This document shows, piece by piece, positions 1,565 through 53,093 of a stretch of DNA of 53,453 nucleotides. The DNA comes from a virus (taxonomy: Duplodnaviria > Caudoviricetes), in IMG/VR virus record IMGVR_UViG_3300017548_000187, positions 1-53,453 of that record, one strand, 5' to 3'. Made by a program: the position numbers and the translations under genes. Under the pieces are notes generated by a model that was given only the letters and a program-made list of their open reading frames with translations, had not been told where the DNA came from and ran no database searches. Within the stretch, counting starts at the first letter, position 1, and every line of letters starts with the position of its first letter.

Positions 1565-3471
1565 GTGGTATCACCTCCGCGCACGGCCAGCGCCGTCGCA
1601 ATGGGCCGCACCCAGATAGGCGTGCTGGACAGTTGGAAGGATTCTCCGGCGCGCGCCAGCAGGATGGCCCGGCCGATCTCTTCGGCCATGGCCTTGGCGG
1701 CCTTCTTAGGCACAGCGTTCCCGATGCGTTCGCGCCAGGCCTGGTCCGAGCTGCCGTGCAGGATGAACTGCTCGCCGGCCTCGGCATAGTCGTCGGGGTC
1801 GTAGAGGCTCTGCAGGGCGGCGAGGTCCAGGGTGGTGAATGGGCGGTGCCAGGTGCCGTCCAGGGCGCGGATCACGCACACCAGCTTGTCGGTGGCCTCC
1901 GGCAGCCGCCAGTCGGCAACGCTCCAACGGCCGTTGTCGTGGCACGCCGACGCCGACACCGCGCCGGACGGCTCCGCCGGGTCCACGACGCCGTAATGGC
2001 CGGCGGTCAGGTAGTTGTCGCCGCGGCCGCGCTCCATGTTCGGGCGAGGGTCGGCCACTGCGTAGGCTCCGTTGGCGTTGCCGGCGATGACCGCCCGGGA
2101 AGGATCAGACCAGTCCGACACCGGATATTTGCCGTGCTGCTCAGCCGACGGGCGGCCTCCAAGAGGATCGGCCACGCACTGGCCCGTGCCGTGGGCACCG
2201 GTTACGGCGCGGGCCTGGCCGTCGAAGGGCACGATGCGGAACTCGTTGGAATGCTTGGCCGGGCCGGCATGGCGGGGGTCCGCGACGCTGAAGCTGCCCT
2301 GGCCAGGCGATTTAACGCCGATAACTGCGCCGGACGTGTCCGACATGCTCAACACGCCGTACTGCTGGTATTGGCTGGCGCCCGCCGCGGCGCGAGGGTC
2401 CGCAACGGAGAAGCGGCCGTTGCTGGGCAGGGATTCGCCCGCCACGGCGCCCGTAGGCGCTTCCCAGGCGTTGACCCCATAGCCGGCCGAGTAGACCTCC
2501 TGGCGCGGGTCGGCGATGCTGTAGGCGCCATTCGTGGGCCCACAGCGGCTCGATACGGTCCCGCTGGCATCTTCCCAGCGCTGCACGCCCAGGAAGCCAT
2601 GGTGGGCCTCGGGCACGATCAGGTAGTCGCGCAGGTGGCCGTTCTCGACGGCCAGCCGGTTCAGGCTACGCCAGTCCTTGCCGGCCTCGACGAAGGCCAG
2701 GCGCACCCAGGTTTTCCAGTTCAGGCTGGGGATGCGGTGCATCGGGCCCATGGCCGGGTCACCCGGGCGCCCGTAGCGGCTCAGCACCTCGCCCACCGAC
2801 CGCAGCGCCCGCTTGGGCGGCTCGTAGATGAAGGGCGGCACTTTGTCGGCGTGCCTGGCGATCAGCAGGAAGCGCTTGCGGCTCTGGGCCAGGCCGCCCA
2901 GCTCGCCGCAGTCGTGCGTGGTTTCGCGCACCACGTAGCCGTAATGGCGCAGCATGCCGGTGATCTGTTCGAGCAGGTGCCGGCCTCGCGTGGCGATGCG
3001 CGGCACGTTTTCGAACAGGATGACCTCGGGCGGATCGTCTGCCCAGGCCTCCAGCATCAGCCATACGCCGCGCAGCGTCAGGCGGTTCAGGGCCTGGTAC
3101 TTGGCGGTGGTGCTGCGGGTCTCCGACAGCAGGCCGGAGAAGCCCTTGCAGGGCGCCGACAGGAAGACGATGTTCGGGCGGTGGCCGTTCGCCGCGGCGC
3201 GCACGTCGGCCGGCATGGCCTCGATCCAGCCCGGGCCGGGCTCCCGGCCGTGGAAGTCCAGGTACTGGCTGCGGTCGAACAGGTCGCGCACGGTGCCGCG
3301 CACGCCCGTGAAGTGGTAGAAGTCCTCCGCGCCGGCCGGGTCAACGTCCATGCCGCCGATGCAGACCATTCGGCCGTGCAGGCCGGGAATCTCCGGGCGT
3401 GCTTCCTGGAAGCCGGCAGCGCCGCCGCCCAACCCGAAGAATAGGTGGAAGTGGTTGATGTCGGTGATCAA
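1561..3471 (-). CDS. DNA cytosine-C5 methyltransferase with repeated variable region
   Basis: Motif I FxGxGG (LFFGLGGG), motif IV (APCKGFS), VI ENV, VIII QSRKR, X IGNAV. Probable TTG start at 3471 behind a GGAG RBS. Confidence 0.92.
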   Translation of the reverse strand: MITDINHFHLFFGLGGGAAGFQEARPEIPGLHGRMVCIGGMDVDPAGAEDFYHFTGVRGTVRDLFDRSQYLDFHGREPGPGWIEAMPADVRAAANGHRPNIVFLSAPCKGFSGLLSETRSTTAKYQALNRLTLRGVWLMLEAWADDPPEVILFENVPRIATRGRHLLEQITGMLRHYGYVVRETTHDCGELGGLAQSRKRFLLIARHADKVPPFIYEPPKRALRSVGEVLSRYGRPGDPAMGPMHRIPSLNWKTWVRLAFVEAGKDWRSLNRLAVENGHLRDYLIVPEAHHGFLGVQRWEDASGTVSSRCGPTNGAYSIADPRQEVYSAGYGVNAWEAPTGAVAGESLPSNGRFSVADPRAAAGASQYQQYGVLSMSDTSGAVIGVKSPGQGSFSVADPRHAGPAKHSNEFRIVPFDGQARAVTGAHGTGQCVADPLGGRPSAEQHGKYPVSDWSDPSRAVIAGNANGAYAVADPRPNMERGRGDNYLTAGHYGVVDPAEPSGAVSASACHDNGRWSVADWRLPEATDKLVCVIRALDGTWHRPFTTLDLAALQSLYDPDDYAEAGEQFILHGSSDQAWRERIGNAVPKKAAKAMAEEIGRAILLARAGESFQLSSTPIWVRPIATALAVRGGDTT

Positions 3472-3521
3472 TGTGACACTCCAATGGGGGCGCGGTACGA
3501 TCCATCTGCGCAACTTGGCGT

Positions 3522-3767
3522 ATGGAGACAAAAATGGAAGACGGCTGGATCCATCAGTGCACCGGAAGTTCTGAGGGTTGGGAGTACGTAGTCGAGACAC
3601 AGGAACGTGGCGGAACGCATTTCGTTCGCATCAAAACGGCGAACAGGCCTTTTCGCGCTTTGGACGGTAGCTACGAATCTGAGGGCGAAGCGGTTGCTGC
3701 CGCCACGGCTTTCGCGACAGGATGGATACGGGACCAGCGTTCCGCTGAGGGCTATCCCGAAGCGTGA
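3522..3767 (+). CDS. Small hypothetical protein (counter-oriented insert)
   Basis: 81-aa ORF with GGAG upstream of the second Met, oriented against the early operon. Confidence 0.55.
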   Translation: METKMEDGWIHQCTGSSEGWEYVVETQERGGTHFVRIKTANRPFRALDGSYESEGEAVAAATAFATGWIRDQRSAEGYPEA

Positions 3768-14963: not shown

Positions 14964-15322
14964 AAGGCCGCTCAACCAATGCGGCGCAACGCCGCTTTCA
15001 TGATGCGCTGTGCAGCCTGGGCTGCATCGCCTGTCGCCGGCGTGGCATCCGCAACACGTATTGCAGCGTGCACCACATCGACGGCCGCACGAAACCCTGG
15101 GCCCACTGGTTGGTGCTGCCTTTGTGCGGCCCACACCACCAGGACGACGGCACCACGGGCGCCATCGCCGTGCACCCGCACAAGGCGCAATTCGAGCAGA
15201 TGTTCGGCAAGCAGCGCGACTTGTTGCGCATGTGCTTAAACATGCTGGCAGAGCAGGGCGTTGAGGTGCCTGAGCCGGCGCGGCGTGCCGCCAATGGCCA
15301 ATGGACAAGGATGGTCGCATGA
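14960..15322 (+). CDS. Ref-like (recombination enhancement) HNH-type Zn nuclease
   Basis: GCIAC, HHIDGRTKP, LPLCxxHHQ. Confidence 0.8.
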   Translation: MKGRSTNAAQRRFHDALCSLGCIACRRRGIRNTYCSVHHIDGRTKPWAHWLVLPLCGPHHQDDGTTGAIAVHPHKAQFEQMFGKQRDLLRMCLNMLAEQGVEVPEPARRAANGQWTRMVA

Positions 15323-17835
15323 AGACGTATGAGGAATTCTTGCGCGAGAAAGTGAAGCTCGCGGCGTTCACCGGCTTCGATGTTGATCCGGCCGAAATCA
15401 ATCCGGCGCTGAAGCCGCACACCCGCGACATCGTTCGCTGGATGGTGAAGGGTGGTAACCGCGCCGTGTTCGCCAGCTTCGGCTTGCACAAGACCGCGAC
15501 GCAGCTGGAAGCGCTGCGGCTGATCGGCGCCCACCGTTCAGGCCTGCGCCTGCAGGTGCTGCCGCTGGGTGTGCGGCAGGAATTCTTCCGCGAGGCCCGC
15601 GAGCGATTCCAGGGAGACTTCGCAGTCGATCTGCGCTTCATCCGCAGCGACAGCGAAATCGGCGATGAACGCACCATCTACCTGACGAACTACGAGAGCG
15701 TGCGCGAGGGGAAAGTGTCACCGTCGCTGTTCCGCGCCACCAGCCTGGACGAAGCCGCCATCCTGCGCAGTTTCGGCAGCAAGACCTACCAGGAGTTCCT
15801 GCCGGCGTTCGCCCCGGTCGAGTTCAAGTACGTGGCCACGGCCACGCCGGATCCGAACCGCTACAAGGAATTGATCCACTACGCCGGCTACCTGGGCGTC
15901 ATGGACACCGGCCAGGCTCTGACGCGCTTCTTTCAGCGCGACAGCGAAAAGGCCGGCAACCTGACCCTGTACCCGCACAAGGAACAGGAGTTCTGGCTTT
16001 GGGTCGCCAGTTGGGCGGTGTTCATCACGAAGCCCAGCGACCTGGGCCATAGCGATGACGGCTATGTCCTGCCCGATCTGGACGTGCGTTGGCACGAAAT
16101 TCCGAGCGACTACGCAGCGGCGGGCACCGAGAAGAGCGGCCAAGGCCTGCTGGTGCCCGACCTGGCCATGGGCCTGTCGGCCGCCGCGCGCGAGAAGCGC
16201 GACAGTTTGCCGGCTCGGGTCGAACTGGTGCGCGATCTGGTGGACCAGGATCCGGAGGACCATTTCATCGTCTGGCACGACCTGGAAGATGAGCGCCACG
16301 CCATTCAGAAGGCCATTCCCGAGGCGGTGAGCGTGTGGGGGTCGCAGCCACTGGAAGAGCGCGAGCAGCGCATCATTGACTTCAGCGATGGCCAGCACCG
16401 GATACTGTCCACAAAGCCGGTCATCGCGGGCAGCGGCTGCAATTTCCAACGGCACTGCCACCGCGAGATATTCGCCGGCGTCGGGTTCAAGTTCAACGAC
16501 TTCATCCAGGCCGTGCACCGGACGTTCCGATTCGGCCAGACCAAGCGCGTGCGCCTGGACATCATCCACACCGAGGCCGAACGCGAAGTGGTGGCGACGC
16601 TGAAGGCCAAGTGGAAGCGCCACGACGAGCAGCAGGCGCGCATGGCGGCCCTGGTGCGTCAGTATGGCCTGGATCACCTGGCGATGCAGGACACGCTGGC
16701 CAGGACCATCGGGATCGAGCGTCGGGTCGTGCGAGGCCAGTGCTTTGAGGTCGCCAACAACGACTGCGTTCTGGAAGCGATGGAGCAGCCGGAGAATTCG
16801 GTCGACCTGATCGTCACCAGCATCCCGTTCGCCAACCACTACGAGTACACGCCCAGCTACAACGACTTCGGCCACACCGAGGATAACGACCACTTCTGGG
16901 CCCAGATGGACTACCTGACCCCGGAGCTGCTACGGATCCTCAAGCCGGGCCGGATGTACTGCTGCCACGTGAAGGACCGGATCAATTTCGGAAACGTCAC
17001 GGGCGCCGGCGTGCCCACCGTCAGCCCATTCCACGCCGAGGCGATCTTTCACGCCCGCAAGCACGGTTTCGACTACATGGGCATGATCACCGTGGTGACC
17101 GACGTGGTGCGCGAAAACAACCAGACGTACCGCCTGGGTTACAGCGAAATGTGTAAGGACGGCTCGAAAATGGGGGTGGGCAGCCCTGAGTATGTGCTGC
17201 TATTCCACAAGCCGCAGTCCGATCGCGGCCGCGGCTATGCCGATACCCCGATAGCGAAAAGCAAGGCGGAGTACAGCCTGGCGCGCTGGCAGATCGACGC
17301 CCACGCCTTCTGGCGCTCGAGCGGCAACCGCCTGCTGACCGCCGACGAGATGGCCATGATGGGCCCGGACCGCCTAGCTAAGTTCTTCACCGAGGACAGC
17401 CTGCAGCGGGTCTACGACTTCGAGCATCACCGCCAGATTGGCGAGCAGCTGCAGGCACGCAATGCGCTTCCCAGCGATTTCATGAGCCTGGCGCCGGGGA
17501 GCCACCACCCCGACGTCTGGCACGACGTCAATCGCATGCTGACGCTCAACGGCGACCAGTCGCGGCGCGCCGTTGAAAAGCACGTATGCCCGCTGCAATT
17601 TGACATCGTGGACCGCCTGATCGAGCGCTACAGCATGAAAGGCGAGCGTGTCTACGACCCGTTCCATGGGCTGGGTACGGTCGGCGTGCGCGCCATCAAG
17701 CTGGGCCGTACGGCCGGCGGATCGGAGCTCAGCGCCGCCTATTTTAAGGATCAGGTGCACTACCTGCAGGCAGCCGAGCGCGAAGCCACCATGCCCACGC
17801 TGTTCGATTTCGATGAGCTTGAGGCTGCGGCATGA
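15319..17835 (+). CDS. SNF2-like helicase fused to N4/N6 DNA methyltransferase
   Basis: GLHKT, LDEAA, TATP, QAVHRTFRFGQ, then TSIPF (SPPY-like), HVCPLQ and DPFHGLGT. Confidence 0.88.
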   Translation: MKTYEEFLREKVKLAAFTGFDVDPAEINPALKPHTRDIVRWMVKGGNRAVFASFGLHKTATQLEALRLIGAHRSGLRLQVLPLGVRQEFFREARERFQGDFAVDLRFIRSDSEIGDERTIYLTNYESVREGKVSPSLFRATSLDEAAILRSFGSKTYQEFLPAFAPVEFKYVATATPDPNRYKELIHYAGYLGVMDTGQALTRFFQRDSEKAGNLTLYPHKEQEFWLWVASWAVFITKPSDLGHSDDGYVLPDLDVRWHEIPSDYAAAGTEKSGQGLLVPDLAMGLSAAAREKRDSLPARVELVRDLVDQDPEDHFIVWHDLEDERHAIQKAIPEAVSVWGSQPLEEREQRIIDFSDGQHRILSTKPVIAGSGCNFQRHCHREIFAGVGFKFNDFIQAVHRTFRFGQTKRVRLDIIHTEAEREVVATLKAKWKRHDEQQARMAALVRQYGLDHLAMQDTLARTIGIERRVVRGQCFEVANNDCVLEAMEQPENSVDLIVTSIPFANHYEYTPSYNDFGHTEDNDHFWAQMDYLTPELLRILKPGRMYCCHVKDRINFGNVTGAGVPTVSPFHAEAIFHARKHGFDYMGMITVVTDVVRENNQTYRLGYSEMCKDGSKMGVGSPEYVLLFHKPQSDRGRGYADTPIAKSKAEYSLARWQIDAHAFWRSSGNRLLTADEMAMMGPDRLAKFFTEDSLQRVYDFEHHRQIGEQLQARNALPSDFMSLAPGSHHPDVWHDVNRMLTLNGDQSRRAVEKHVCPLQFDIVDRLIERYSMKGERVYDPFHGLGTVGVRAIKLGRTAGGSELSAAYFKDQVHYLQAAEREATMPTLFDFDELEAAA

Positions 17836-24908: not shown

Positions 24909-25400
24909 ATGGCAACGCTCAACGATGCGGCCAAGCGCTTCATTGTTCAGGCGCTGGCCTGTTACGACACACCAACGCAGGTGGCGGAAGCGGTAAAGGA
25001 AGAGTTCGGCCTCGAAGTTCATCGCGCCCATATTGCCCAGTACGATCCGACGAAAGCGTCCGGGCAGAAGCTGGCCAAGAAGTGGCGCGTTATTTTCGAG
25101 GACACGCGGCGCCAGTTCCGCGAACATGTGGCAGAGATTCCAATTGCGCAGCGGGCATTTCGCCTTCGCACGTTGCAGCGTTTGGCGAGTAAAGCCGAGG
25201 GGCAGCGCAACATTGTCTTGGCCATGCAGGCATTGGAGCAGGCCGCCAAGGAAATGGGTGACGCCTACGTGAATCGTCGGCTTGACCAGCCCGGCCGGCC
25301 GCCTGGGGGCGATGCCGGCGGCGGCGACCCGGCAGACATGACAGCTGACGAATACGTGCTGCGGCCCGACGAAGATGCTCCAGCGAACCCGATCCTTTGA
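24909..25400 (+). CDS. terS: Terminase small subunit (DUF2280)
   Basis: FIVQALACYDTP..VAEAVKEEFG, YDPTK, LEQAAKE. Confidence 0.85.
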   Translation: MATLNDAAKRFIVQALACYDTPTQVAEAVKEEFGLEVHRAHIAQYDPTKASGQKLAKKWRVIFEDTRRQFREHVAEIPIAQRAFRLRTLQRLASKAEGQRNIVLAMQALEQAAKEMGDAYVNRRLDQPGRPPGGDAGGGDPADMTADEYVLRPDEDAPANPIL

Positions 25401-26706
25401 AGGCCCGGTATCGCTGACGCCCAAGCAGGCGAACATCTACGTCTGGGGCTGGCAGCGGCAGGCGCGGTTTCGGGATGCCGTCTGCGGCCGGCGCTTCGGC
25501 AAGACCTTCCTGGGCAAAGCCGAGATCCGGCGCGCCGCGCGCCTGGCCGTGAAGTGGCAGGTCAGCGTCGAGGACGAGATCTGGTACGCGGCGCCGACGT
25601 TCAAGCAGGCCAAGCGAGTCTTCTGGCGGCGCCTGAAGCAGGCCATCCCCAGGGACTGGCGCGCCGGCAAGCCGAACGAAACCGAGTGCAGCATTACGCT
25701 GCGCAGCGGTCACGTGATCCGGATCGTGGGCCTGGACGCCTACGACAACCTGCGCGGCTCAGGTCTGTTCTTCGTGCTGATCGACGAATGGGCAGACTGT
25801 CCCTACGAGGCGTGGGAAGAGGTGGTCCGGCCCATGTTGTCGACCTGTAGATATGTGGTCGACGGTGTCGAGTACGTCGGCGGCCACGCCCTGCGGATCG
25901 GCACTCCGAAGGGCTTCAACCACTGCTACGACACCTACCTGGATGGCCAGGAAGGCCGCCAACCCGACCACAAGAGCTGGCTGTACACGTCGCTGCAGGG
26001 CGGCAATGTGCCGGCCGAGGAAATCGAGGCGGCGCGCCGCCGGATGGACCCGAAGACCTTCCGGCAGGAATACGACGCCAGCTTCGAGAATTACACGGGC
26101 GTCGTCTACTACTGCTTCGATCGCCGGAAGAATCACACCGACGACCGCGTGCGCAAGGGCGACGTCCTGCACATCGGCATGGACTTCAACGTCAGCAAGA
26201 TGGCGGCCGTGGTGTTCGTGGTACGCGAGGATGGCTGGCCGCGCGCGGTCGACGAGGTGATGGACGTCTTCGACACGCCCACGATGATCGAGAAGCTGAA
26301 AGAGCGCTTCGCTGGCCATTCGATCACGGTTTACCCGGACGCCTCAGGCGACAGCCGCAAGACCAACAACGCCAACGAGTCCGATATCTCGTTGCTGCGC
26401 AAGGCCGGCTTCGTGGTGCGAGTGAATCCGGCGAACCCGGCCGTGAAAGACCGCATCAACAGTATGAACGCCATGCTGTGCAACACCTACGGCGAGCGCC
26501 GCCTGCTGGTGAACACCGACCAGTGCCCGAAGTTCACGCAGGCGCTGGAGCGCCAGATCTACGACGACAAGGGCAAGCCCGGCAAGGCGCTGGAACCCGA
26601 CAAGAAGCTCGGTTTCGACCACCCCAACGATGCCGGCGGCTACTTCATCGTCCATCGCTACCCGATCAATTCCCGGAACGCCACCGTCACCTCCCTGCGC
26701 ATGTAA
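25375..26706 (+). CDS. terL: Terminase large subunit
   Basis: Walker A GRRFGKT, LIDE, GTP, nuclease motifs GMDFN and DHPNDA. Confidence 0.95.
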   Translation: MLQRTRSFEGPVSLTPKQANIYVWGWQRQARFRDAVCGRRFGKTFLGKAEIRRAARLAVKWQVSVEDEIWYAAPTFKQAKRVFWRRLKQAIPRDWRAGKPNETECSITLRSGHVIRIVGLDAYDNLRGSGLFFVLIDEWADCPYEAWEEVVRPMLSTCRYVVDGVEYVGGHALRIGTPKGFNHCYDTYLDGQEGRQPDHKSWLYTSLQGGNVPAEEIEAARRRMDPKTFRQEYDASFENYTGVVYYCFDRRKNHTDDRVRKGDVLHIGMDFNVSKMAAVVFVVREDGWPRAVDEVMDVFDTPTMIEKLKERFAGHSITVYPDASGDSRKTNNANESDISLLRKAGFVVRVNPANPAVKDRINSMNAMLCNTYGERRLLVNTDQCPKFTQALERQIYDDKGKPGKALEPDKKLGFDHPNDAGGYFIVHRYPINSRNATVTSLRM

Positions 26707-26708
26707 CC

Positions 26709-28097
26709 ATGACCCTGACCGTAGACCAACAGAGCGACGCCGTGAAGGCGATGGCCGAACACTGGCCCATCGTCGACGCGCTGCTCGGCGGCACGCCGGC
26801 CATGCGCAAGGCAGCCCAGGCTTACTTGCCCAAGTGGCCGAATGAGGACCACGAGAGCTACGAGGCACGCCGGAAGACGGCAACCCTGTATCCGGCGTTT
26901 GAGCGCACCTTGGGCGTCATGGCGGGCAAGCCATTCAGCAAGGAGCTGACCTTCGGCGACGATGTGCCAGAGGCCATTCGTCAGTGGTGCCAGAACTGCG
27001 ACCTCGAGGGCCGTAATCTGCACAGCTTCATGGCGGATCAGATGGCCGAATGCTTGGGGTACGGCATTGCGGGCGTGCTGGTCGATTTTCCGCGTACCAC
27101 CGGTCTGCGCACCCGCGCTGACGAGGCTGCCGCTGGCGTGCGTCCGTATCTGGTCATGATCAAGCATGCTCAGTTGCTGGGCTGGCGCACATCACGTGGC
27201 GCCGACGGTGTGACCCGGCTGACGCAGCTGCGCCTGGCCGAGGTCGCCGAGGTTGACGATGGTGAATACGGCACCAAGGAAGTGCAGCGGGTGCGCGTGC
27301 TACGACCTGGTAGCTGGGAACTCTGGGAGCAGGGTGACCGTGCCTGGACGAAGATCGACGAAGGCGCGACCACCCTGGACGTGATCCCGTACGTGCCGTT
27401 CTACGGCCGGCGCACGGGCTTCATGACCGGCAAGTCGCCGCTGCTGAACCTGGCCTACCTGAACGTCAAGCACTGGCAGAGCCAGAGCGACCAGGACACG
27501 ATCCTGCACGTGGCCCGGGTGCCGATCCTGTTCACCAAGGGGTTTCAGGAGGGCGAGACCATCACGGTTGGCGCATCGGCCGCCGTGCGCAGCGAGAACG
27601 ACCAGGCCGACATGAAGTACGTCGAGCACACCGGTGCGGCGATTGAGGCTGGCCGCCAGGCGCTGGAAGACCTGCAGGACCAGATGATCCAGACGGGCGC
27701 CGAGCTGCTGGTAGCCCAGCCAGGCGAGCGCAGCGCTACCGAGGCGAACAACGACGCCGAGGCCAATAAGTCAGAGCTGCAGCGCATCGTCGAGGGCTTC
27801 GAGGATTCCATCGACCAATGCCTGCAGCTGATGGCCGACTGGGCGCGGCTCGGCGAGGGCGGCCATGCGAGCCTCTACAAGGACTTCACGGCAGCCACGC
27901 TGACCGACGCATCGGCGCAGCTCGTCCTGAACCTGCAGCAAGCCGGCCTGATTACCAAGAAGACAGCCATCCGGGAACAGCAGCGCCGCGGCATGCTGGC
28001 GCCCGACGTGAACCCCGACGACGAGCTGGACGCCGTCGCGGAAGAGGGACCGTCGCTCGGCAGCCTAGGTACGGGCGATGGCGGCCGCGCAGACTGA
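26709..28097 (+). CDS. Portal protein (DUF4055-type)
   Basis: Position after terL; YLPKWPNE..Y..R and PLLNLAYLNVKHWQSQSD. Confidence 0.88.
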   Translation: MTLTVDQQSDAVKAMAEHWPIVDALLGGTPAMRKAAQAYLPKWPNEDHESYEARRKTATLYPAFERTLGVMAGKPFSKELTFGDDVPEAIRQWCQNCDLEGRNLHSFMADQMAECLGYGIAGVLVDFPRTTGLRTRADEAAAGVRPYLVMIKHAQLLGWRTSRGADGVTRLTQLRLAEVAEVDDGEYGTKEVQRVRVLRPGSWELWEQGDRAWTKIDEGATTLDVIPYVPFYGRRTGFMTGKSPLLNLAYLNVKHWQSQSDQDTILHVARVPILFTKGFQEGETITVGASAAVRSENDQADMKYVEHTGAAIEAGRQALEDLQDQMIQTGAELLVAQPGERSATEANNDAEANKSELQRIVEGFEDSIDQCLQLMADWARLGEGGHASLYKDFTAATLTDASAQLVLNLQQAGLITKKTAIREQQRRGMLAPDVNPDDELDAVAEEGPSLGSLGTGDGGRAD

Positions 28098-29814
28098 AAT
28101 CGTTGACGCGTCGATCCGTCATCAGATCGACCTGGTCAAGTACTCCAACGGGGTCGTTCGCAAGATCATCGCGCTATTGAATCGGGTGGATCCTGACCTG
28201 GTGGCGCAGCTGACGGCCGCCCTGGAACGCTTGGCGCCGCAAGATTTCACCGTCCAGCGCCTGGATGCCTTGCTGAAGGACGTGCGCCAGCTCAACGAGC
28301 AGGCCTACCGCCAGGTGCGGGGCGAGCTCGAAGGTGAACTGCAGGACCTGGTCAGCACCGAGATCGGCTTCCAGGCCAGCCTGTTCGATTCGCTGGCCAT
28401 CGAGTACTCGACGCAGGGTGTCACGTCGGCCCAGGTCTACGCCGGCGCCATGGCGCGGCCGTTCCAGGGTCGGCTGCTGCGCGAGTGGATGGATGGTTTG
28501 GAGGCCGGCCGGGCCCAGCGAATCCGCGACGCCGTGCGCATGGGCTACGTCGAGGGCCAGACCACCGCCCAGATCGTGCGGCGCATCCGTGGCACCAAGG
28601 CAGCCGGGTATGCCGACGGCCTGCTGGAGATCGACCGGCGCCACGCCGAGACTATCGTGCGCACCGCCCTGAGCCACACGGCCGGCTTTGCCCGGGATCG
28701 GTTCTACGACGCCAACGACGACATCATTGGCGCCCTGGGGTGGGTCAGCACGCTGGACGGGCGCACCAGCCCGATGTGCCGGCTGCGCGACGGCCTGCGG
28801 TACACCACCGACCACAAGCCCATCGGCCACAAGGTGCCGTGGGGGGCCGGGCCCGGGCGGCTGCACATGTGCTGCCGGTCGACGTCGCTGCCCATCCTGA
28901 AGGGTATGGAGGACGAGCCGCTGTTCGGCACGCGGGCATCCCAGGGCGGCCCCGTCAAGGCCAGCACGACCTACGCCGACTGGCTGAAGGGCCAGTCACA
29001 GGCCGTCCAGGACGACGTCCTTGGCAAGAGCAAGGGGGCGCTGTTCCGCAGCGGCAAGCTGCCGCTGGACAAGTTCTACAACGACAAGGGCCAGACCTTG
29101 ACGTTGAACCAGCTCAAGGCCAAGTTCCCGGCGCCGGCGGCAAAGGCCGGCCTGACGCTGCCCTACCAGCCGCCGCTGGGCCAGCCCAAGGACGCCATCG
29201 CCAAGTTCCTGGCGTCGCCGCAGGCGCAGCAGGATCTACTGGGCCGGCTGTACCGGGGCGAGTCCATGGACTACGCCGCCCACGCCCGGCGCGTAGCCGA
29301 GATCAAGGCGGCCGAGGGTTACAATTCGACGGTCGAATCGCTGGCTGCCGTGCGGTACTACACGGGCAGCGGTTTCCTGCCGATCAACCGGCGCATGCGC
29401 GAGACGGGCGGCACCCTGGAAGACCGGCAGTTTGCGTCGCTGACGGTGTCCAGCTTCCCGGGCATCGGCGAGCACCGCGGCGAGATCTGGCGGGCGCCGA
29501 CCACCCGAGCGGCCAACGCCAACACCTGGTGGGATCGCGCGGCCGTTGGCGAGCCCCTGGACTTAGGCAACCAGCTGCTGTCATTCTCGCGAGCGGTCGA
29601 GGTGCCGGCCAATTGGGCCGGATCGGCTGACGTCCTGCTGCGCATTGGCTCGCCGCGGCACGGGGTGTATATTGAGCCGTTGACCCTGAACGGCGGCGAG
29701 CATGAGGTGCTGCTGCCGCCGGGGCTGAAATACCGGGTCGCCGGCAAGAGCACGGCGACAGTAAGAGGGCGCACCTACAGGGTGATTGACCTGGAGATCG
29801 AAGATGGCGACTGA
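28078..29814 (+). CDS. MuF/SPP1-gp7 minor head protein with C-terminal ADP-ribosyltransferase
   Basis: MuF core STLDGRTSPMC...HMCCRS; C-terminal YTGSGF.PIN..MR, IWR, SFS, EHEVLLPPG. Confidence 0.88.
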   Translation: MAAAQTEIVDASIRHQIDLVKYSNGVVRKIIALLNRVDPDLVAQLTAALERLAPQDFTVQRLDALLKDVRQLNEQAYRQVRGELEGELQDLVSTEIGFQASLFDSLAIEYSTQGVTSAQVYAGAMARPFQGRLLREWMDGLEAGRAQRIRDAVRMGYVEGQTTAQIVRRIRGTKAAGYADGLLEIDRRHAETIVRTALSHTAGFARDRFYDANDDIIGALGWVSTLDGRTSPMCRLRDGLRYTTDHKPIGHKVPWGAGPGRLHMCCRSTSLPILKGMEDEPLFGTRASQGGPVKASTTYADWLKGQSQAVQDDVLGKSKGALFRSGKLPLDKFYNDKGQTLTLNQLKAKFPAPAAKAGLTLPYQPPLGQPKDAIAKFLASPQAQQDLLGRLYRGESMDYAAHARRVAEIKAAEGYNSTVESLAAVRYYTGSGFLPINRRMRETGGTLEDRQFASLTVSSFPGIGEHRGEIWRAPTTRAANANTWWDRAAVGEPLDLGNQLLSFSRAVEVPANWAGSADVLLRIGSPRHGVYIEPLTLNGGEHEVLLPPGLKYRVAGKSTATVRGRTYRVIDLEIEDGD

Positions 29815-30243: not shown

Positions 30244-30533
30244 AGTCCCTGGATGAATTGCGTAATGGCCCGTTGACGCTCGCGTATGACGAAAAGCGGC
30301 AGGGCTACTTTGTACTCGGTGCGGGATTTGATTTTTTCCTGTACTTCACTGGCCACTGCCTTGAGTGTGATGCGGTCCGCCGCGAAGGTGGGGACTTTGT
30401 ACTACATATGGAGATTCCCCTACCACCCAGTGGGAAAGCCGATCACGATGTACTGCTCACCCAGGTCATGCACGAGTTGTCGCAATACTGGGATATCGAT
30501 GGTATCCAAGTAGACCCCACCCGATACAGATAA
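30240..30533 (+). CDS. Low-GC hypothetical protein
   Basis: GTGA overlap; 97 aa. Confidence 0.55.
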   Translation: MKSLDELRNGPLTLAYDEKRQGYFVLGAGFDFFLYFTGHCLECDAVRREGGDFVLHMEIPLPPSGKADHDVLLTQVMHELSQYWDIDGIQVDPTRYR

Positions 30534-30543
30534 CCGAAGAATG

Positions 30544-30604
30544 TCCCGCTCAGTGCGGGCCTTTTTATTTCAGCCCCTCCGGCTCACACCGGCGGGGCTT
30601 TTTC
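30544..30604 (+). terminator. Tandem intrinsic terminators
   Basis: Two hairpins, each followed by a T-run. Confidence 0.6.
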
Positions 30605-30675
30605 ATGCCCGCAAGTGGACACCGAGGGCGCGATGGGCCGGATGGCTCGCAAGTAACCGGGCGGATGCCCAGAGG

Positions 30676-31458
30676 ATGAACGTGAAGCTCAAGACGATCG
30701 AAGTGGAAGGCAAGGTGTACGCCGAGGTGCAGGATGGCAAACCGGTGTATGTGGAAGACGACGGCAAAGAGGTTGCATTTGATGCCGTGGGGACCCGCAC
30801 CACCATCAGCCGGCTGAACGGCGAGGCGAAATCCCACCGGGAGCGCGCCGAAGCTGCCGAGGGAAAGCTGAAGGCCTTCGATGGCATCGAAGACGGCGAC
30901 GCCGCGCGCAAGGCGCTGGAAACGGTAAAGAACCTGGACCAGAAGAAGCTCATCGACGCAGGCGAAGTCGACAAGGTCAAGGCCGAAATCAGCAAGTCGT
31001 TCCAGACCAAGCTGGATGACGCCGAGGCCCGCGCCAAGAAGTTGGAAGACCAGCTGTACGGCGAGAAGATCGGCGGTGCCTTCGCGCGCTCGCCCCTGAT
31101 CGTCGGCGACAAGGCCAAGGTCGCCATCCCGGCCGACATGGTGCAGGCGCGGTTCGGCCAGCACTTCAAGGTCGAGGACGGCAATGTCGTGGCGTACGAC
31201 GCCAATGGCAACAAGCTGTTCTCGCCGGCGCGGCCCGGCGAGCTGGCCACCTTCGACGAAGCACTCGACATCCTCATCGAGCAATACCCCCACAAAGACC
31301 ACATCCTGAAGGGCTCCGGTGCCAACGGCGGCGGTGCCCGAGGCGGTGGCGGCGGGGGCAACAATCCTGCGCTCAAACGCTCGGAAATGAAGCCCGAACA
31401 AATGCGGGAATTCATCGCCGAGCATGGGCGCGACGCCTATCTGCAACTGCCCAAATGA
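30676..31458 (+). CDS. Capsid scaffolding protein (DUF6651-like)
   Basis: Coiled-coil and charged, Gly-rich linker and C-terminal helix; directly before the MCP. Confidence 0.8.
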   Translation: MNVKLKTIEVEGKVYAEVQDGKPVYVEDDGKEVAFDAVGTRTTISRLNGEAKSHRERAEAAEGKLKAFDGIEDGDAARKALETVKNLDQKKLIDAGEVDKVKAEISKSFQTKLDDAEARAKKLEDQLYGEKIGGAFARSPLIVGDKAKVAIPADMVQARFGQHFKVEDGNVVAYDANGNKLFSPARPGELATFDEALDILIEQYPHKDHILKGSGANGGGARGGGGGGNNPALKRSEMKPEQMREFIAEHGRDAYLQLPK

Positions 31459-31466
31459 GGTAAATC

Positions 31467-32456
31467 ATGGCTACCACGCTGAACAGCGACATGGTCATCT
31501 ACAACGACCTTGCGCAAACCGCCTACCTGGAGCGCATCCAGGACGTGCTGGATGTCTTCAATGCTTCGTCTGCGGGCGCCATCCGCTTGGTGAACGACAA
31601 CATCGAAGGCGACTTCAAGAAGCGCGCCTTCTACACTGTCGGTGGTTCGATCGTGCACCGCAACGTCAACACCGATGCGACCGTCACCCCGGCCAAGATC
31701 GGCTCCGGCGAAATGGTGGGGGTGAAATACCCCTGGAAGTATGGCCCCTACGCCAGCACGGAAGAAGCCTTCAAGCGGCGCGCTCGCACGCCCGAAGAGT
31801 TCTCGATCCTGGTGGGCCAGGACATGGCTGACGCCGTGATCGCGGGCTACATCGAGATCGCCTTCGCGGCCCTGGCGGCCGCCATCGGCGCCAATGCCGC
31901 CATGAACGCCTCGGGCTCGTTCGCCACCGACCACAAGAAGGTGCTGACCAAGGGCATGCGCAAGTTCGGCGACCGCTTCAACCGCGTCGCGCTGTTCGGC
32001 ATGGACTCGGGCACCTACTTCGACCTGGTCGACGACGCCATCGACGAGAAGATCTACGAGGAAGCCGGGATCGTCGTCTACGGTGGCACGCCGGGCACCA
32101 TGGGCAAGCCGGTGCTGGTGTCGGACCGCATCCCGGCCGACCGCATCTTCGGCCTGCAGGCGGGGGCCATCACCCTGACCGAGTCGCAGGTGCCGGGTGT
32201 GCGCAGCTATCCCATCAACGACCAGGAAAACCTGGCCCTGGGCTTCCGGGCCGAGGGCACGGTGAACCTGGACCTGCTGGGCTACAGCTGGAAGGATGAC
32301 ACCGCCGGCGCGAACCCGAGCCTGGCGGCCCTGGGCACGGGTGCCAACTGGACCAAGTACGCCATCAGTGACAAGGCGACGGCGGGCGTGCTGATCACGC
32401 TGACCGGTGGCTCTGGCTCGGCGTCGGCGCCGTCGGGCTCGGGTTCTGGCGTCTAA
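31467..32456 (+). CDS. Major capsid protein with Ser/Gly C-terminal extension
   Basis: GAGGT RBS, strong codon bias, position after scaffold; ends ...AGVLITL-TGGSGSASAPSGSGSGV. Confidence 0.9.
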   Translation: MATTLNSDMVIYNDLAQTAYLERIQDVLDVFNASSAGAIRLVNDNIEGDFKKRAFYTVGGSIVHRNVNTDATVTPAKIGSGEMVGVKYPWKYGPYASTEEAFKRRARTPEEFSILVGQDMADAVIAGYIEIAFAALAAAIGANAAMNASGSFATDHKKVLTKGMRKFGDRFNRVALFGMDSGTYFDLVDDAIDEKIYEEAGIVVYGGTPGTMGKPVLVSDRIPADRIFGLQAGAITLTESQVPGVRSYPINDQENLALGFRAEGTVNLDLLGYSWKDDTAGANPSLAALGTGANWTKYAISDKATAGVLITLTGGSGSASAPSGSGSGV

Positions 32457-32459
32457 GCC

Positions 32460-33443
32460 ATGCGCGTCGGAATCTACGCCGGCGCCAGCCATCCGGCGGT
32501 GACAGCGCTGCTGCAGGGTTTTGCCCTGTGCGGCGCCACCGCGCACGCCCGCAATTCCGCCTACCACCGCGGCGAGATCGAGAATTTCGACTTGGTCGTG
32601 GTGTACGGGTTGCGGGCGGGCTGCCGGGTGCGCGACGCCTACCAGGCCGCTGGCGTGGCCGTGGTCGTGTTTGACTGGGGCTACTTGGCGCGGGTAAACG
32701 AGCCCAGCCAAACCAGTACCGGCCACTTTCAATTCGGCTTGGGCGGGCTGAACCGGCCGCCGGCATTCGCGTGCCCGACGGATCGCTTCGACTCCCTGGG
32801 CCTGACCATTGCGGAGCAGGGCGGCGATCCGGACGGTTACGTGCTGCTCTGCGGCCAGGTGCCGGGCGATGCCGCCCATGGCTTGGACGCCCAGCAGATC
32901 GAAAGCTGGGCCCGCGAGGCCGCTGCCCACTGGCCCAACGTTCGGTACCGGCCACATCCGCGCGGCGGCATCGACATCGCGGGCCTCGAATCGGACCGCT
33001 CGCCGCTTGCCAAGGCGCTGGCCGGCGCGCGCCGAGTCGTGACGATCAACAGCAACGTCGGCCACGACGCTCTGCTGGCAGGTGTGCCGGTTCTTGCCGA
33101 CGGCCCGGCGGCATATGCTGAGCTGGCCGGCGACGTTCTGCCCACGGTCGAAGCGCGCCGCGAATACTTCGCGCGGCTCGCCTACGGCCAGTGGACGGTG
33201 GCCGAAATGGCCAGCGGCGCCTGCCCGCGTTTCCTGCTCGACCACCTGGTGCCAGGTGTTGGCCCGGCTATCGAGGGCCAACGGCCGGACGATGCCGAGC
33301 CTGGCGTGCAGGAGTCGGCCGGCAGCGAAGACCCACGGCCGATCACGCCGGCGACGCCCGCCGCCGCGGTTCAAGCCCCCGCTGCTGCCAAACAGGCGCG
33401 CCGCGGGCGTGGCAAGGGGAAGGCGCATGCCGCTGATCGTTGA
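32460..33443 (+). CDS. KpsS/KpsC-like (Capsule_synth) glycosyltransferase
   Basis: GQVPGD (QxxxD), RPHP, VTINSNVGHDALLAGVPV..G.A.Y. Confidence 0.78.
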   Translation: MRVGIYAGASHPAVTALLQGFALCGATAHARNSAYHRGEIENFDLVVVYGLRAGCRVRDAYQAAGVAVVVFDWGYLARVNEPSQTSTGHFQFGLGGLNRPPAFACPTDRFDSLGLTIAEQGGDPDGYVLLCGQVPGDAAHGLDAQQIESWAREAAAHWPNVRYRPHPRGGIDIAGLESDRSPLAKALAGARRVVTINSNVGHDALLAGVPVLADGPAAYAELAGDVLPTVEARREYFARLAYGQWTVAEMASGACPRFLLDHLVPGVGPAIEGQRPDDAEPGVQESAGSEDPRPITPATPAAAVQAPAAAKQARRGRGKGKAHAADR

Positions 33444-33912
33444 GGACGGCTCCGGGCTGGCCAACGCCGACAGCTATGTGTCGGTGGCCGACTGTCAGGC
33501 CTACGCCACGGCCCACGGCCTGACGTTCGACGGCGATGCTGCGGCGCTCGACGCCGCGCTGCGCAACGCCACGATCTACCTGGACACGGCATACACCTTC
33601 CGCGGCGAGCGCAAGACGTGTGAGCAGGCTCTGGAATGGCCGCGGCGCTGCGTGCCGGCCGAAGGCGTGCCGCGCGAGGTGGTGTCGGCCTGCTGCGAGC
33701 TGGGTGTGCGCGCGCTGGCCGGGCCACTCTGGCAGGATGTGGACGCCACGGCCGAGGGGGCGGTCACCGAGGAAACCATCGGGCCGATCACGACCCGGTA
33801 CGCCGCCGCGCGTGGCGCGCGGGCGGACGGCCAGACCCAATACGCCGGCGTGACGGCGCTGCTGCGGCGCTGGACCGGCCCGAGCTCGATGGTCAGGCTG
33901 GTGAGGGCGTGA
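33427..33912 (+). CDS. Head-tail adaptor (DnaT-like ssDNA-binding family)
   Basis: MPLIVEDGSGLANADSYVSV and QALEWPR. Confidence 0.85.
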   Translation: MPLIVEDGSGLANADSYVSVADCQAYATAHGLTFDGDAAALDAALRNATIYLDTAYTFRGERKTCEQALEWPRRCVPAEGVPREVVSACCELGVRALAGPLWQDVDATAEGAVTEETIGPITTRYAAARGARADGQTQYAGVTALLRRWTGPSSMVRLVRA

Positions 33913-33913
33913 C

Positions 33914-34081
33914 GTGGAAATCGGCGACGGCTTTTATCTGCCCGAGGACGGTATCGACGGCGTCGTGGTTGATCTGCTCTACGACGACTGCATGAAGCCC
34001 GTAAGCGCTGTCGTCGAGCTAGCCGATGGCGGCTATGCCGCAGTCGATCTGACGCGCGTCGAGCCGGTGACGGTGCACTGA
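33914..34081 (+). CDS. Small acidic hypothetical protein (55 aa)
   Basis: Read manually: GTG 33914 to TGA 34081, filling the gap between head-completion genes. Confidence 0.5.
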   Translation: MEIGDGFYLPEDGIDGVVVDLLYDDCMKPVSAVVELADGGYAAVDLTRVEPVTVH

Positions 34082-34458
34082 TGGTCAAGTTCAACTATGG
34101 CCGGCCGGCAGCCACGGCATTGCGCATGCTCAAGCGCTATGGCGGCCCGGTGACGCTGCGCCGGCCCGGCACAGGCGAATATGACCCCAGCACGGGCACC
34201 GTCGACAGCGCGCCGACCGACTACCCGGGCACGGGCGCCAAGTTCGACTACGAGCAGCGCAACATCGACGGCACCAAGATCCTGCAGGGCGACCAGCAGG
34301 TGTACCTGGCGGTGCAGCAGGACAACGGTCAGGCCATGCCGCGGCCGAAGGCGGGCGACCTGATCCTGATCGGCACCGAGGCCTGGCGCGTCGTCACCGC
34401 CGAGGCCATCGAGCCCGCCAGCGTACCGGTGCTGTACATCGTCCAGGTGCGTAAGTGA
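34081..34458 (+). CDS. Head closure protein
   Basis: YDPSTG and IDGTKILQGD; position in the module. Confidence 0.75.
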   Translation: MVKFNYGRPAATALRMLKRYGGPVTLRRPGTGEYDPSTGTVDSAPTDYPGTGAKFDYEQRNIDGTKILQGDQQVYLAVQQDNGQAMPRPKAGDLILIGTEAWRVVTAEAIEPASVPVLYIVQVRK

Positions 34459-34856
34459 CGTTCTCGGCCGATATCGCCAAGTTCGTGGTGCAGGCCAAGG
34501 GCAACATCGACGAAGCAGCCCGCCGCGCCACGATCCTGCTGGCGCAGGGCGTGATTCTGAAATCGCCGGTGGACACTGGCCGGTTCCGCGGCAACTGGAT
34601 GTTCGCCGCCGGCGCCGTGCCGCGCCAGACGCTGACGACTACCGACCCATCAGGCCAGGCGACGCTGTCGCGCCTGATCGCGCAAATCGACACCACGGGC
34701 GCCGGCGGCATTACCTACCTGTCGAACAACCTTCCCTATGCCGTGCGCCTGGAAAACGGCTGGTCCAAGCAGGCGCCGCAGGGCATGGTCCGACTGACCG
34801 CCCAGGAATTCCAGGCCTATGTCAGCAAGGCCGCCAACGAGGTGCACAACAAATGA
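34455..34856 (+). CDS. HK97 gp10-like tail completion protein
   Basis: SPVDTGRFRGNW and NNLPYAVRLENGWSKQAPQGMV. Confidence 0.88.
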   Translation: MTFSADIAKFVVQAKGNIDEAARRATILLAQGVILKSPVDTGRFRGNWMFAAGAVPRQTLTTTDPSGQATLSRLIAQIDTTGAGGITYLSNNLPYAVRLENGWSKQAPQGMVRLTAQEFQAYVSKAANEVHNK

Positions 34857-35337: not shown

Positions 35338-35994
35338 ATGAGCGCGATTTTCCCGAACGGCACCATCTTCTCGGTGTCCACCGCCCTCGGCGCCGCCATC
35401 GCGGTGTCGGCCATTTCCAATGCCAACCCGGGTGTTGCCACGGCCGCCGCGCCGCCGGCTGACGGTGCCATCGGCGTCATCACGTCGGGCTGGGCCGCCC
35501 TGACCGAGCGCGTCGTGCGCGTCGCCAATGCCGATTCCGGCTCGTTCGAATTGGAGGGCATCGACACCACCAATCTAACGCGGTACCCCGCCGGGCAGGG
35601 GGCTGGATCGTTCGCCGTCGCCACCGGGTTTGTCGACCTGTCGCAGGTCACCAATTCCGAGAAGTCGGGCGGCGAGCAGCAGTTCTACCAGTGGCAGTAT
35701 CTGGAGGATCGTGGCGGGCGCCAGCGCCAGCGGCCGACCTTCAAGAATGCCAAAGTGCTGACCGTCACCCTCGACTACGACCCGGCGCTAGCCTGGTACA
35801 ACGCGCTGGTCGAGGCCGACGCGCTACGCGAGCCAGTTGTGCTGCGCGCCACGCTGCCCAACGGCGTGCAGCTCTACTACTACGTCTACCCGTCCTTCGA
35901 CGGCGACCCTTCGCTGGTGATGAACACGAACATGCAGAACGTGGCGACGTTTTCCATGATCTCGGACTTCACCCGTTACGAGGCTGCGGCTTAA
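35338..35994 (+). CDS. Major tail tube protein
   Basis: PNG..ISNANP, SGGEQQF, LPNG; AGGAG RBS. Confidence 0.88.
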   Translation: MSAIFPNGTIFSVSTALGAAIAVSAISNANPGVATAAAPPADGAIGVITSGWAALTERVVRVANADSGSFELEGIDTTNLTRYPAGQGAGSFAVATGFVDLSQVTNSEKSGGEQQFYQWQYLEDRGGRQRQRPTFKNAKVLTVTLDYDPALAWYNALVEADALREPVVLRATLPNGVQLYYYVYPSFDGDPSLVMNTNMQNVATFSMISDFTRYEAAA

Positions 35995-52405: not shown

Positions 52406-53071
52406 TTATTTTGGCTCCGGCGTGGCGACCAGCGCGTCGGCCGGGTAGGGCTGCAGGAAATCCCGGGTATCAGCTGCCGGCGCGGTCAGCCAGTCGTCGT
52501 AGGCGCCATCCGGCAGGATCACTACCATCCGCTTCTCGTCGTTGGGCCGGTGGTACTCGCGGAACAGCGGGTGGTGGTCGGCGTTGATGGTCAGCATGGT
52601 GTAGCTGAGCCGCCAGTTGCCGTCGGCGTCCTTGTGCTGATCCCACAGGCCTGCGATGCCCAGCGGCGCGCCGTCGGCTCTGGTGAACCTGGTCGCCACG
52701 GCCTTGCCCGAGCGCCAGTCCGGTTCATAGACAGCCTCGGCAGGCACGATGCACCGCTGACCCTTACGCCAGGCGTTGCTGAAGGTGAAGGACTTGTGGG
52801 CGGTTTCGGATCGCGCATTGAACGTCGACAGTTTCTCCGCCTTCGCCAGCCCGTCGGCGCGCGTCATGCCCGAAATCAACCCCCAGCGCCCGATCTCCAC
52901 CTCCCGCTCTGGGACGGCCTCATCCCCGGAATCCCATTCGGGCGGTCTTCTGACGAACTCCCCAAGGCGGCGCGGCCACATGTCCCAGTTTGGCGGCAGA
53001 GGAATGCCCCGGGTGCGGAAGTACTTCTCCAGCTGCTCGCGCTTTTTGATGCCTTGGTAGTGGCTGCACAT
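52406..53071 (-). CDS. SOS response-associated peptidase (SRAP/YedK/HMCES)
   Basis: Met-Cys2 start, WGL, NARSET, RC..PA, HRP..EKRM. Confidence 0.92.
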   Translation of the reverse strand: MCSHYQGIKKREQLEKYFRTRGIPLPPNWDMWPRRLGEFVRRPPEWDSGDEAVPEREVEIGRWGLISGMTRADGLAKAEKLSTFNARSETAHKSFTFSNAWRKGQRCIVPAEAVYEPDWRSGKAVATRFTRADGAPLGIAGLWDQHKDADGNWRLSYTMLTINADHHPLFREYHRPNDEKRMVVILPDGAYDDWLTAPAADTRDFLQPYPADALVATPEPK

Positions 53072-53093
53072 GCCAATCATCCTGGCTAGGAAC

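Follow-up and report, generated by a model that had tools for sequence, protein, structure and literature searches.

The stretch of DNA analysed here (the window) is a 53,453-base provirus record from IMG/VR (IMGVR_UViG_3300017548_000187), judged complete and laid out like a lambdoid siphovirus. Among its head genes, one open reading frame (ORF) lies between the gene for a Gp13-like major capsid protein (MCP) and that for the head-tail adaptor Ad1 (Table 1). We describe the product of this ORF, hereafter the transferase, as a predicted relative of bacterial enzymes that transfer 3-deoxy-D-manno-octulosonic acid (Kdo), which probably sugar-coats a head protein of this prophage. A sequence-only reading of the locus had singled out the end of the MCP, TGGSGSASAPSGSGSGV, which is indeed 17 residues long with six Ser and one Thr, and three segments of the adjoining ORF, GQVPGD (residues 131-136), RPHP (164-167) and VTINSNVGHDALLAGVPV (194-211), all of which are present and are followed by the adaptor gene; it had proposed that a KpsS-like transferase glycosylates the capsid tail.

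The solved enzymes that the transferase resembles are KpsC, which we take to be CAZy family GT107, WbbB, whose N-terminal beta-Kdo transferase domain is presumably GT99, and KrkA. In an alignment of 41 homologues with 39-67% identity to the transferase (alignment A1), residues Q133, D137, R164, H166, P167, S198, G201 and G208 are invariant (41/41), which argues that the motifs did not arise by chance. A profile of A1 compared with the PDB retrieved ten sequences at E <=10, namely five of KpsC (best 2.3e-5), four of WbbB (best 6.6e-3) and one unrelated chain (E 0.3). In the alignment with this profile, D137 shares a position with KpsC Asp160 (occupied by N and C in the D160N and D160C chains, respectively), H166-P167 is aligned with the ...VHP... 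of KpsC, and a segment (T/N)S..G..ALLAG.PV is common to both proteins. The N-terminal module of E. coli KpsC is a retaining beta-Kdo transferase of group 2 capsule synthesis (PDB 6mgc, 8fuw, 8fux). Its catalytic nucleophile, which has been trapped experimentally (Kdo adduct, 220.18 Da), is Asp160, part of the QXXXD motif; the HP motif is shared with cytidine monophosphate (CMP)-sialic acid transferases, and the general base, Glu66, and the general acid, His94, both belong to the N-terminal domain (PMC10148158).

The predicted structure points the same way. The AlphaFold2 (AF2) model of the transferase has a mean predicted local distance difference test score (pLDDT) of 87.9, with a disordered stretch near the C-terminus. 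A Foldseek search with this model returned only KpsC, WbbB and KrkA at ranks 1-27 (E 6.5e-10, the best match to KpsC, to 1.8e-6), other folds appearing from 2e-5, and VIA-align gave Z 15.0 for KpsC (two-domain fold, 234 residues, 4.1 A), 14.4 for WbbB and 11.4 for KrkA, as against at most 9.2 for generic GT-B folds and epimerases. That the ORF encodes a compact, single-module relative of the retaining beta-Kdo transferases KpsC/KpsS, WbbB and KrkA is well supported by profile, motifs and modelled fold, and at the level of fold and motifs the enzyme class named in the sequence-only reading is borne out. All 41 homologues, even those at 39% identity, keep the nucleophile Asp, the QxxxD Gln and the HP motif, which speaks for catalysis having been preserved; because fold and motifs match KpsC, a double displacement through an Asp-Kdo adduct is plausible for the phage enzyme.

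The likeness has limits. KpsC is a dual-module protein with an amphipathic membrane anchor, whereas the phage enzyme is a single module of ~270 residues with 19% identity to it, ends in a disordered linker and a basic stretch, and is encoded in a phage head operon. WbbB (a Raoultella O-antigen terminator; PDB 5fa0/5fa1, 8cs*) and KrkA (PDB 9yfx-9yfz) share the fold and the QxxxD/HP logic; they differ in being only 14-16% identical and in capping or building glycans, while no glycan-synthesis genes lie near the phage enzyme. In a non-significant segment of the profile alignment (-0.4 bits), Asp72, conserved in at least 90% of homologues, takes the place of the base Glu66 and Arg52 falls on Arg45, and the KpsC acceptor residues Trp42 and Asp67 have no counterpart, a hint from this weak alignment that the acceptor may differ from that of KpsC. 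Counting against the assignment, no clearly conserved counterpart of the general acid His94 was found in A1 (His89 varies between H, Y and N), the transferase matched no family in PHROGs, and Pfam Capsule_synth (PF05159) scored 17.8 bits (E 0.0025, residues 182-220 only), below the gathering cut-off of 20. Of the match to a GT-B or Capsule_synth family that the earlier reading had expected, the KpsC/WbbB-type fold was thus found and the Pfam family was missed at its own cut-off; among scanned homologues, P0092 reached 20.9 bits, P0029 and P0037 stayed under the cut-off, and a precomputed PF05159 match exists for 5/120 listed homologues. We therefore regard the transferase as catalytically plausible, without counting it as a PF05159 member by that family's own cut-off.

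We surveyed transferase loci on 55 viral contigs and 11 in bacterial genomes. Near-copies are frequent among them: the 57 enzyme cores used comprise 48 distinct ones. In 46/55 viral loci, a Gp13-like MCP is encoded on the strand of the transferase, and in 45 of these 46 the transferase starts between -11 and +74 nucleotides (nt) from the MCP stop; the last, L023, has a gap of 900 nt. Among the other nine viral loci, L044 and L048 are cut at the 5' end of the enzyme gene, and L039, L034 and L041 have a very distant Gp13-type MCP directly upstream (phrog_247, E 6e-103, in L039; only sub-threshold Pfam matches in L034 and L041). A P22-type MCP (phrog_283, E 1e-105) lies just upstream in L055, the order in L045 is a phrog_283 MCP, a small HeH-like protein, a methyltransferase dependent on S-adenosylmethionine (SAM) and the transferase, and in L052 the upstream genes are a weakly MCP-like one and one resembling Mu gp36. 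The ninth, L054, is described below with the sialyltransferase-like gene that it carries. Capsid-gene adjacency recurs in 10/11 bacterial-genome loci. The named hosts are all Gram-negative: Orrella, Pusillimonas, Pigmentiphaga, Paracandidimonas, Pseudomonas/Ectopseudomonas, Bowmanella, Rhodanobacter and Desulfuromonas. Culturable carriers among them are Pusillimonas noertemannii DSM 10065 (L080, with 10 Ser in its capsid tail), Paracandidimonas soli DSM 100048 (L088, with a short tail), Orrella sp. JC864 (L078), and Ectopseudomonas composti LY1 and Pseudomonas sp. P818 (L084, L085), whose capsid protein is tail-less. No other observation argues as strongly for a role in the head as this linkage to capsid genes, which spans MCPs ~30% identical and two capsid families.

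Within the window, a scan of 30400-34600 gave no promoter-like site, and the sole terminator-like site, at 30545, lies far from the transferase gene; the GC content of the gene, like that of its neighbours, is 0.68-0.72. Together with the 3-nt gap to the MCP gene and the 17-nt overlap with the adaptor gene, these features rule out a moron or lysogenic-conversion gene. It is well supported, by synteny, that the transferase gene is an internal late gene of the head operon with a role in the head module.

The same observations bear on the possibility that the enzyme acts on a glycolipid or glycan of the host envelope (lipopolysaccharide (LPS), a capsule anchor or an O-antigen end), whereby it would exclude superinfection or keep progeny from binding to debris. 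KpsC and WbbB do have glycolipid or glycan acceptors (PMC10148158; PDB titles), and the source name of one homologue begins 'Capsular polysaccharide biosynthesis pr...'. An envelope enzyme is nevertheless hard to reconcile with the lack of a promoter or terminator, the neighbour-like GC content and the coupling to late head genes, with a post-capsid position kept in several capsid lineages, with a C-terminus that is disordered and has no helix past residue 263 in place of the amphipathic membrane anchor of KpsC, and, in the weak alignment, with the loss of Trp42 and Asp67. We consider an envelope target distinctly unlikely.

The family is large and mostly viral. Among 8000 candidates scored, 130 proteins were transferase relatives at E <=1e-3, and a library clustered at 50% identity gave 1600 clusters at E <=1e-3, 541 at <=1e-10 and 67 at <=1e-30. 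The nearest Atlas clusters are 76-97% viral, and structural look-alikes in BFVD come from uncultured Caudovirales, Caulobacter phage CcrColossus and Tetraselmis virus 1. Only 1/50,697 deposited phage records holds a relative, MW202713, with 32% identity and a position after a methyltransferase gene.

A few neighbourhoods outside the usual arrangement were recorded on their own account. A gene for a SAM-dependent methyltransferase lies directly 5' of the transferase in two unrelated contigs (L045:1700-2347 and L056, that is MW202713, 4205-4801), and MW202713 also encodes a TibC-like glycosyltransferase and a pyridoxal phosphate-dependent enzyme nearby. L054:2891-6376 encodes a sialyltransferase-like protein (phrog_4603, E 7.8e-43) with a tandem pair of KpsC-like transferase genes behind it, which looks like a small cluster of CMP-sugar transferases.

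Table 1. Features of the head region of the window, with the evidence for each
Feature	Coordinates	Strand	Evidence
Terminase	25375-26706		Pfam/PHROG scans
Portal-like gene	26478-28097		Pfam/PHROG scans
Mu-F-like head morphogenesis protein	28078-29814	+	phrog_241 E 4.6e-145
Head scaffolding protein gene, 5' of capsid gene	30541-31458	+	phrog_784 E 1.2e-110; phrog_206 (head scaffolding) E 1.4e-30; Pfam DUF6651 E 1.9e-43
MCP, Gp13-like, HK97-type, 329 residues	31467-32456	+	Pfam PF20036 E 2.4e-102; phrog_247 E 1.9e-67; profile against solved capsid protein 8xb6 E 1e-35
Ser/Gly C-terminal tail of MCP, 17 residues (313-329), candidate acceptor	32403-32453 (coding stretch)	+	Sequence; lies outside the aligned part of the MCP matches listed
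Transferase ORF, 327 residues	32460-33443	+	Start 3 nt past MCP stop
Predicted catalytic core of transferase, residues 1-270: two alpha/beta domains, Q133xxxD137, H166-P167, T195-x-N-S198	32460-33269	+	AF2, Foldseek, VIA, profile against PDB, invariant residues
C-terminus of transferase: disordered Pro/Ala-rich acidic linker, then basic end (...RRGRGKGK...)	33270-33443	+	pLDDT <50 for residues 284-313; no secondary structure past residue 263
Head-tail adaptor Ad1 gene	33427-33912	+	phrog_477 E 2.2e-45; Pfam DnaT_2 E 3.3e-47; start overlaps transferase end by 17 nt

In the 60 MCP matches listed, of 384 phage records, the alignment stops at residue 309-313 of 329, which makes the 17-residue tail an appendage to the conserved MCP fold. 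The C-terminus of HK97-type capsid proteins is generally taken to be external. Of the capsid and tail tube proteins of the window, only the capsid protein has such a tail; the tail tube protein (35338-35994) ends in ...YEAAA. An AF2 model of the MCP built from 16 sequences was poor (pLDDT 46.3) and nothing on tail placement is drawn from it; a predicted complex of transferase residues 1-283 with the MCP scored 0.66, 0.00 and 0.00 without controls and is weighed neither way. A literature search on PDB entry 8xb6 found no report.

The MCPs closest to that of the window (group A: 14 viral loci, the window and five genome loci, MCP E <=1e-100 to the window's) all carry G/S/A-rich tails of 6-28 residues. 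The Pusillimonas tail, for example, is PSSGSGSASASGSASGSGSGV, and that of one Pigmentiphaga metagenome-assembled genome has 28 residues, 13 of them Ser. We compared the distinct C-termini of close MCP relatives, 14 enzyme-linked and 15 enzyme-free, leaving aside the incomplete L065 and all of the more distant set described below (group B). Tails of at least nine residues were found in 9/14 enzyme-linked and 1/15 enzyme-free MCPs (Fisher p 0.0017), Ser counts ranged over 1-13 and 0-2, respectively (Mann-Whitney p 4e-5), and an acidic residue was present in 2/14 and 8/15 (Fisher p 0.05), p-values that are overstated because the rows are related and not phylogenetically independent. Expansions of the (GS)n type, 16-28 residues long, adjoin the enzyme only. 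The enzyme was not encoded elsewhere in the enzyme-free records (0/16, five of which are at least 90% complete; positive control 5/5). When an MCP tree is inferred with the tail columns removed, presence of the enzyme takes four changes, at least three of them forced by well-supported branches, and one sister pair opposes L011, which has the enzyme and ends in ANGSGSTSA, to Acinetobacter phage Acba_16, which lacks it and ends in SGTATTG.

Other capsids speak against the tail as the general target. Group B, 32/46 MCP-linked viral loci, is tail-less, its MCPs ending three residues past the last strand (QSR, KSR, KSK, ...AGVVIQSR or similar), and enzyme-free relatives of group B for which the contig runs far enough past the gene end alike or similarly (L104 KSR, L107 QSR, L108 RTQ, L109 ISG). 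Short S/T/G/P tails, of 3-11 residues and often with Pro, Thr, Glu or Asp, also occur in the group A relatives that lack the enzyme (16 complete viral loci, five cultured phages), and the enzyme-linked tail of L078, TGDAGAGS, is not Ser-rich. On the transferase tree, 14/15 group-A-linked enzymes form one clade (97/96) nested within group-B-linked diversity, which marks the tail as a late, lineage-specific feature. A Ser/Thr-rich C-terminal extension beside a phage-encoded transferase is thus present in this phage and absent for most of the enzyme family. The equally tight linkage to tail-less capsids and the identical ends of enzyme-free relatives rule out the tail as a family-wide acceptor. 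Consequently, the co-occurrence of tail and enzyme expected by the sequence-only reading holds within the close MCP clade and fails across the 46 MCP-linked loci, and the tail as acceptor remains plausible for this lineage, where tails shift with the enzyme, and is abandoned for the family. On our reading of the trees, the role of the enzyme would be older than the tail and would not need one, and the expansion of Ser/Gly tails beside the enzyme in one lineage fits extra or preferred acceptor sites.

These results also open the possibility that the enzyme glycosylates a virion protein away from the tail, either at a site common to tailed and tail-less MCPs or on the scaffold, portal or a decoration protein, the composition of the tail being a side effect or unrelated. 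Besides the 32 tail-less loci and the nesting of the tail-linked enzymes in a single clade, this would account for the acceptor-side residues Y75, Q91, L97 and R109 of the N-terminal domain, which in A1 are invariant across tail-linked and tail-less enzymes. It leaves unexplained why, within the close MCP clade, tails shift with the enzyme over at least three forced changes and why the long (GS)n expansions adjoin the enzyme only, and no other Ser/Thr-rich head protein was identified in this analysis. We hold an off-tail acceptor to be unlikely.

The transferase core of ~270 residues is followed, in many homologues, by a disordered acidic or Pro/Ala-rich linker and a small terminal module. Among 120 homologues, 44 have no extension, 25 (the window's protein included) have a basic RGR-type patch, 23, and three more by eye, an HeH/SAP-like motif and six a KGRGxYSV end, while the core motif was not found in 11. 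Pfam HeH and SAP score below threshold on P0029 and P0004 (HeH on P0029, 25.9 bits against 28.9), and a precomputed PF12949 match exists for 3/120. About half of the homologues end in interchangeable modules, which hint at DNA binding and for which a protein acceptor gives no explanation; their role may lie in holding DNA or in directing proteins to the head.

In enzyme-free relatives, the slot behind the capsid gene is filled by other proteins: one with an Ig-like domain in Klebsiella and E. coli phages, and ~200-residue coiled-coil proteins elsewhere (L120:2223-2888, Acinetobacter phage Acba_16; L119:2189-2800, Pseudomonas phage phiAH14a), that of Acba_16 ending in an Ish1/HeH module (E 9e-8, above cut-off). 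This succession of Ig-like decoration domains and small head proteins in one slot would suit a transferase that had kept its fold, lost its activity and become a structural head or decoration protein. The invariance of the nucleophile Asp, the QxxxD Gln and the HP motif in all 41 homologues makes such a loss very improbable. Separately, an ORF of ~100-120 residues found directly after the capsid gene in L103 (3468-3779), in L111 (3503-3865) and at the corresponding position in L112-L116 matches positions 2-65 only of the transferase profile (E 2e-5 to 5e-4) and has a basic-patch end; it may be the remnant of a lost transferase.

The terminal modules are also the starting point for a reading in which the enzyme glycosylates phage DNA late, around packaging, tethered to it by an AT-hook-like or HeH/SAP-like module. 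Basic RGR-type ends in 25/120 homologues, HeH/SAP-like motifs in a further 23 and three by eye, the sub-threshold HeH and SAP scores of P0029 and P0004, and the C5 cytosine methylase encoded at window 1561-3600 all fit it. There is a precedent in GT94, a phage enzyme reported to place a Kdo-like sugar acid, drawn from the host pool, on 5-hydroxymethylcytosine (Pyle et al., bioRxiv 10.1101/2023.12.21.572611). In that preprint, however, GT94 is described as T4 beta-glucosyltransferase-like and as encoded beside C5-methyltransferase and 5mYOX genes, whereas the present enzyme is KpsC-like and its conserved neighbour is a capsid gene and not a DNA-modification gene. Furthermore, 44/120 homologues lack any extension, Pfam and PHROG scans gave no 5-methylcytosine dioxygenase, and no Tet/JBP dioxygenase was found in the window or four relatives, a weak negative since the control was silent too. 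Finally, phages without the enzyme have, in this slot, non-enzymatic proteins that end in the same HeH/Ish1 module, which points to a head-related module. DNA as the acceptor has, in our view, a slim chance.

Elsewhere in the window, the genes 3' of the adaptor encode head closure, tail completion and tail terminator proteins, then tube, chaperone, tape measure, tip and lysis functions. The C-terminal part of the Mu-F-like head protein contains an ADP-ribosyltransferase domain (residues 521-573; Pfam ADPrib_exo_Tox, E 6.6e-8), and the protein may be a head-packaged, injected enzyme. Two large DNA-methylase fusions are encoded, a 679-residue protein with a C5 cytosine methylase domain (1561-3600, minus strand) and an 844-residue helicase-like protein with an N6/N4 methylase domain (15301-17835, plus strand). 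An SOS response associated peptidase (SRAP) gene (52406-53080, minus strand; Pfam E 4.5e-33) lies near the right end of the provirus record.

The model that we favour is that the Kdo-type transferase modifies a head protein, here most likely the MCP tail. No cytidylyltransferase (PF02348) was found in transferase-bearing virus records (0/6, window included; control positive in 11/14 reference genomes), and the donor would therefore be one made by all of these hosts. The simplest candidate would be CMP-Kdo, which LPS requires, since it is available in any LPS-making host and the phage has no cytidylyltransferase gene of its own. The transferase would be made late, on one transcript with the capsid and adaptor genes, and in the host cytoplasm it would take up a host-supplied CMP-activated ulosonic acid, with CMP-Kdo as the simplest candidate. 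A covalent sugar adduct would form on Asp137, as it does on Asp160 in KpsC, from which the sugar would then be handed to a hydroxyl on a head protein. For this lineage, the exposed Ser/Gly tail of the MCP would be the most likely acceptor and would turn acidic.

Further considerations temper this model. Every solved relative acts on a glycan or glycolipid, and we know of no protein O-Kdo. Our literature searches returned no protein O-Kdo and no KpsC-type enzyme in a phage head module, no Kdo-type transferase acting on protein, and no virion glycosylation by phage enzymes for Gram-negative hosts. Taken as a whole, we hold the model tentatively and put it a little short of an even chance. Its extension to the family, in which compact Kdo-type transferases, almost all of them phage-borne, would be a standard optional head-module gene of Gram-negative siphophages, placing an acidic ulosonic sugar on capsid hydroxyls, with interchangeable C-terminal modules (HeH-like, AT-hook-like or other) for targeting and (Gly-Ser)n tails as extra acceptors in one lineage, is possible and, on present evidence, doubtful; it would be the first protein O-Kdo glycosylation.

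The nearest known parallel is the glycosylation of mycobacteriophage virions, where glycans are reported on the C-termini of capsid and tail-tube subunits (Freeman et al. 2023, as described in PMC12619734; cited in PMC12582341) and where a phage-encoded transferase likewise lies beside structural genes. Here, in contrast, the host is Gram-negative, the enzyme is of the CMP-ulosonic-acid type, the tail is found on the capsid protein only and most members of the family adjoin tail-less capsids, and glycosylation is a prediction.

If the favoured model is true, it would bear on what chemistry the beta-Kdo transferase fold is known to perform. Since prophages of this kind are present in several strains that can be cultured, the question lends itself to direct testing. 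A large, mostly viral family, nearly absent from cultured phages, would then mark capsids carrying an acidic bacterial sugar, and sugar coats of this kind would bear on the charge and stability of the particles and on their recognition by antibodies or by capsid-sensing host defences.

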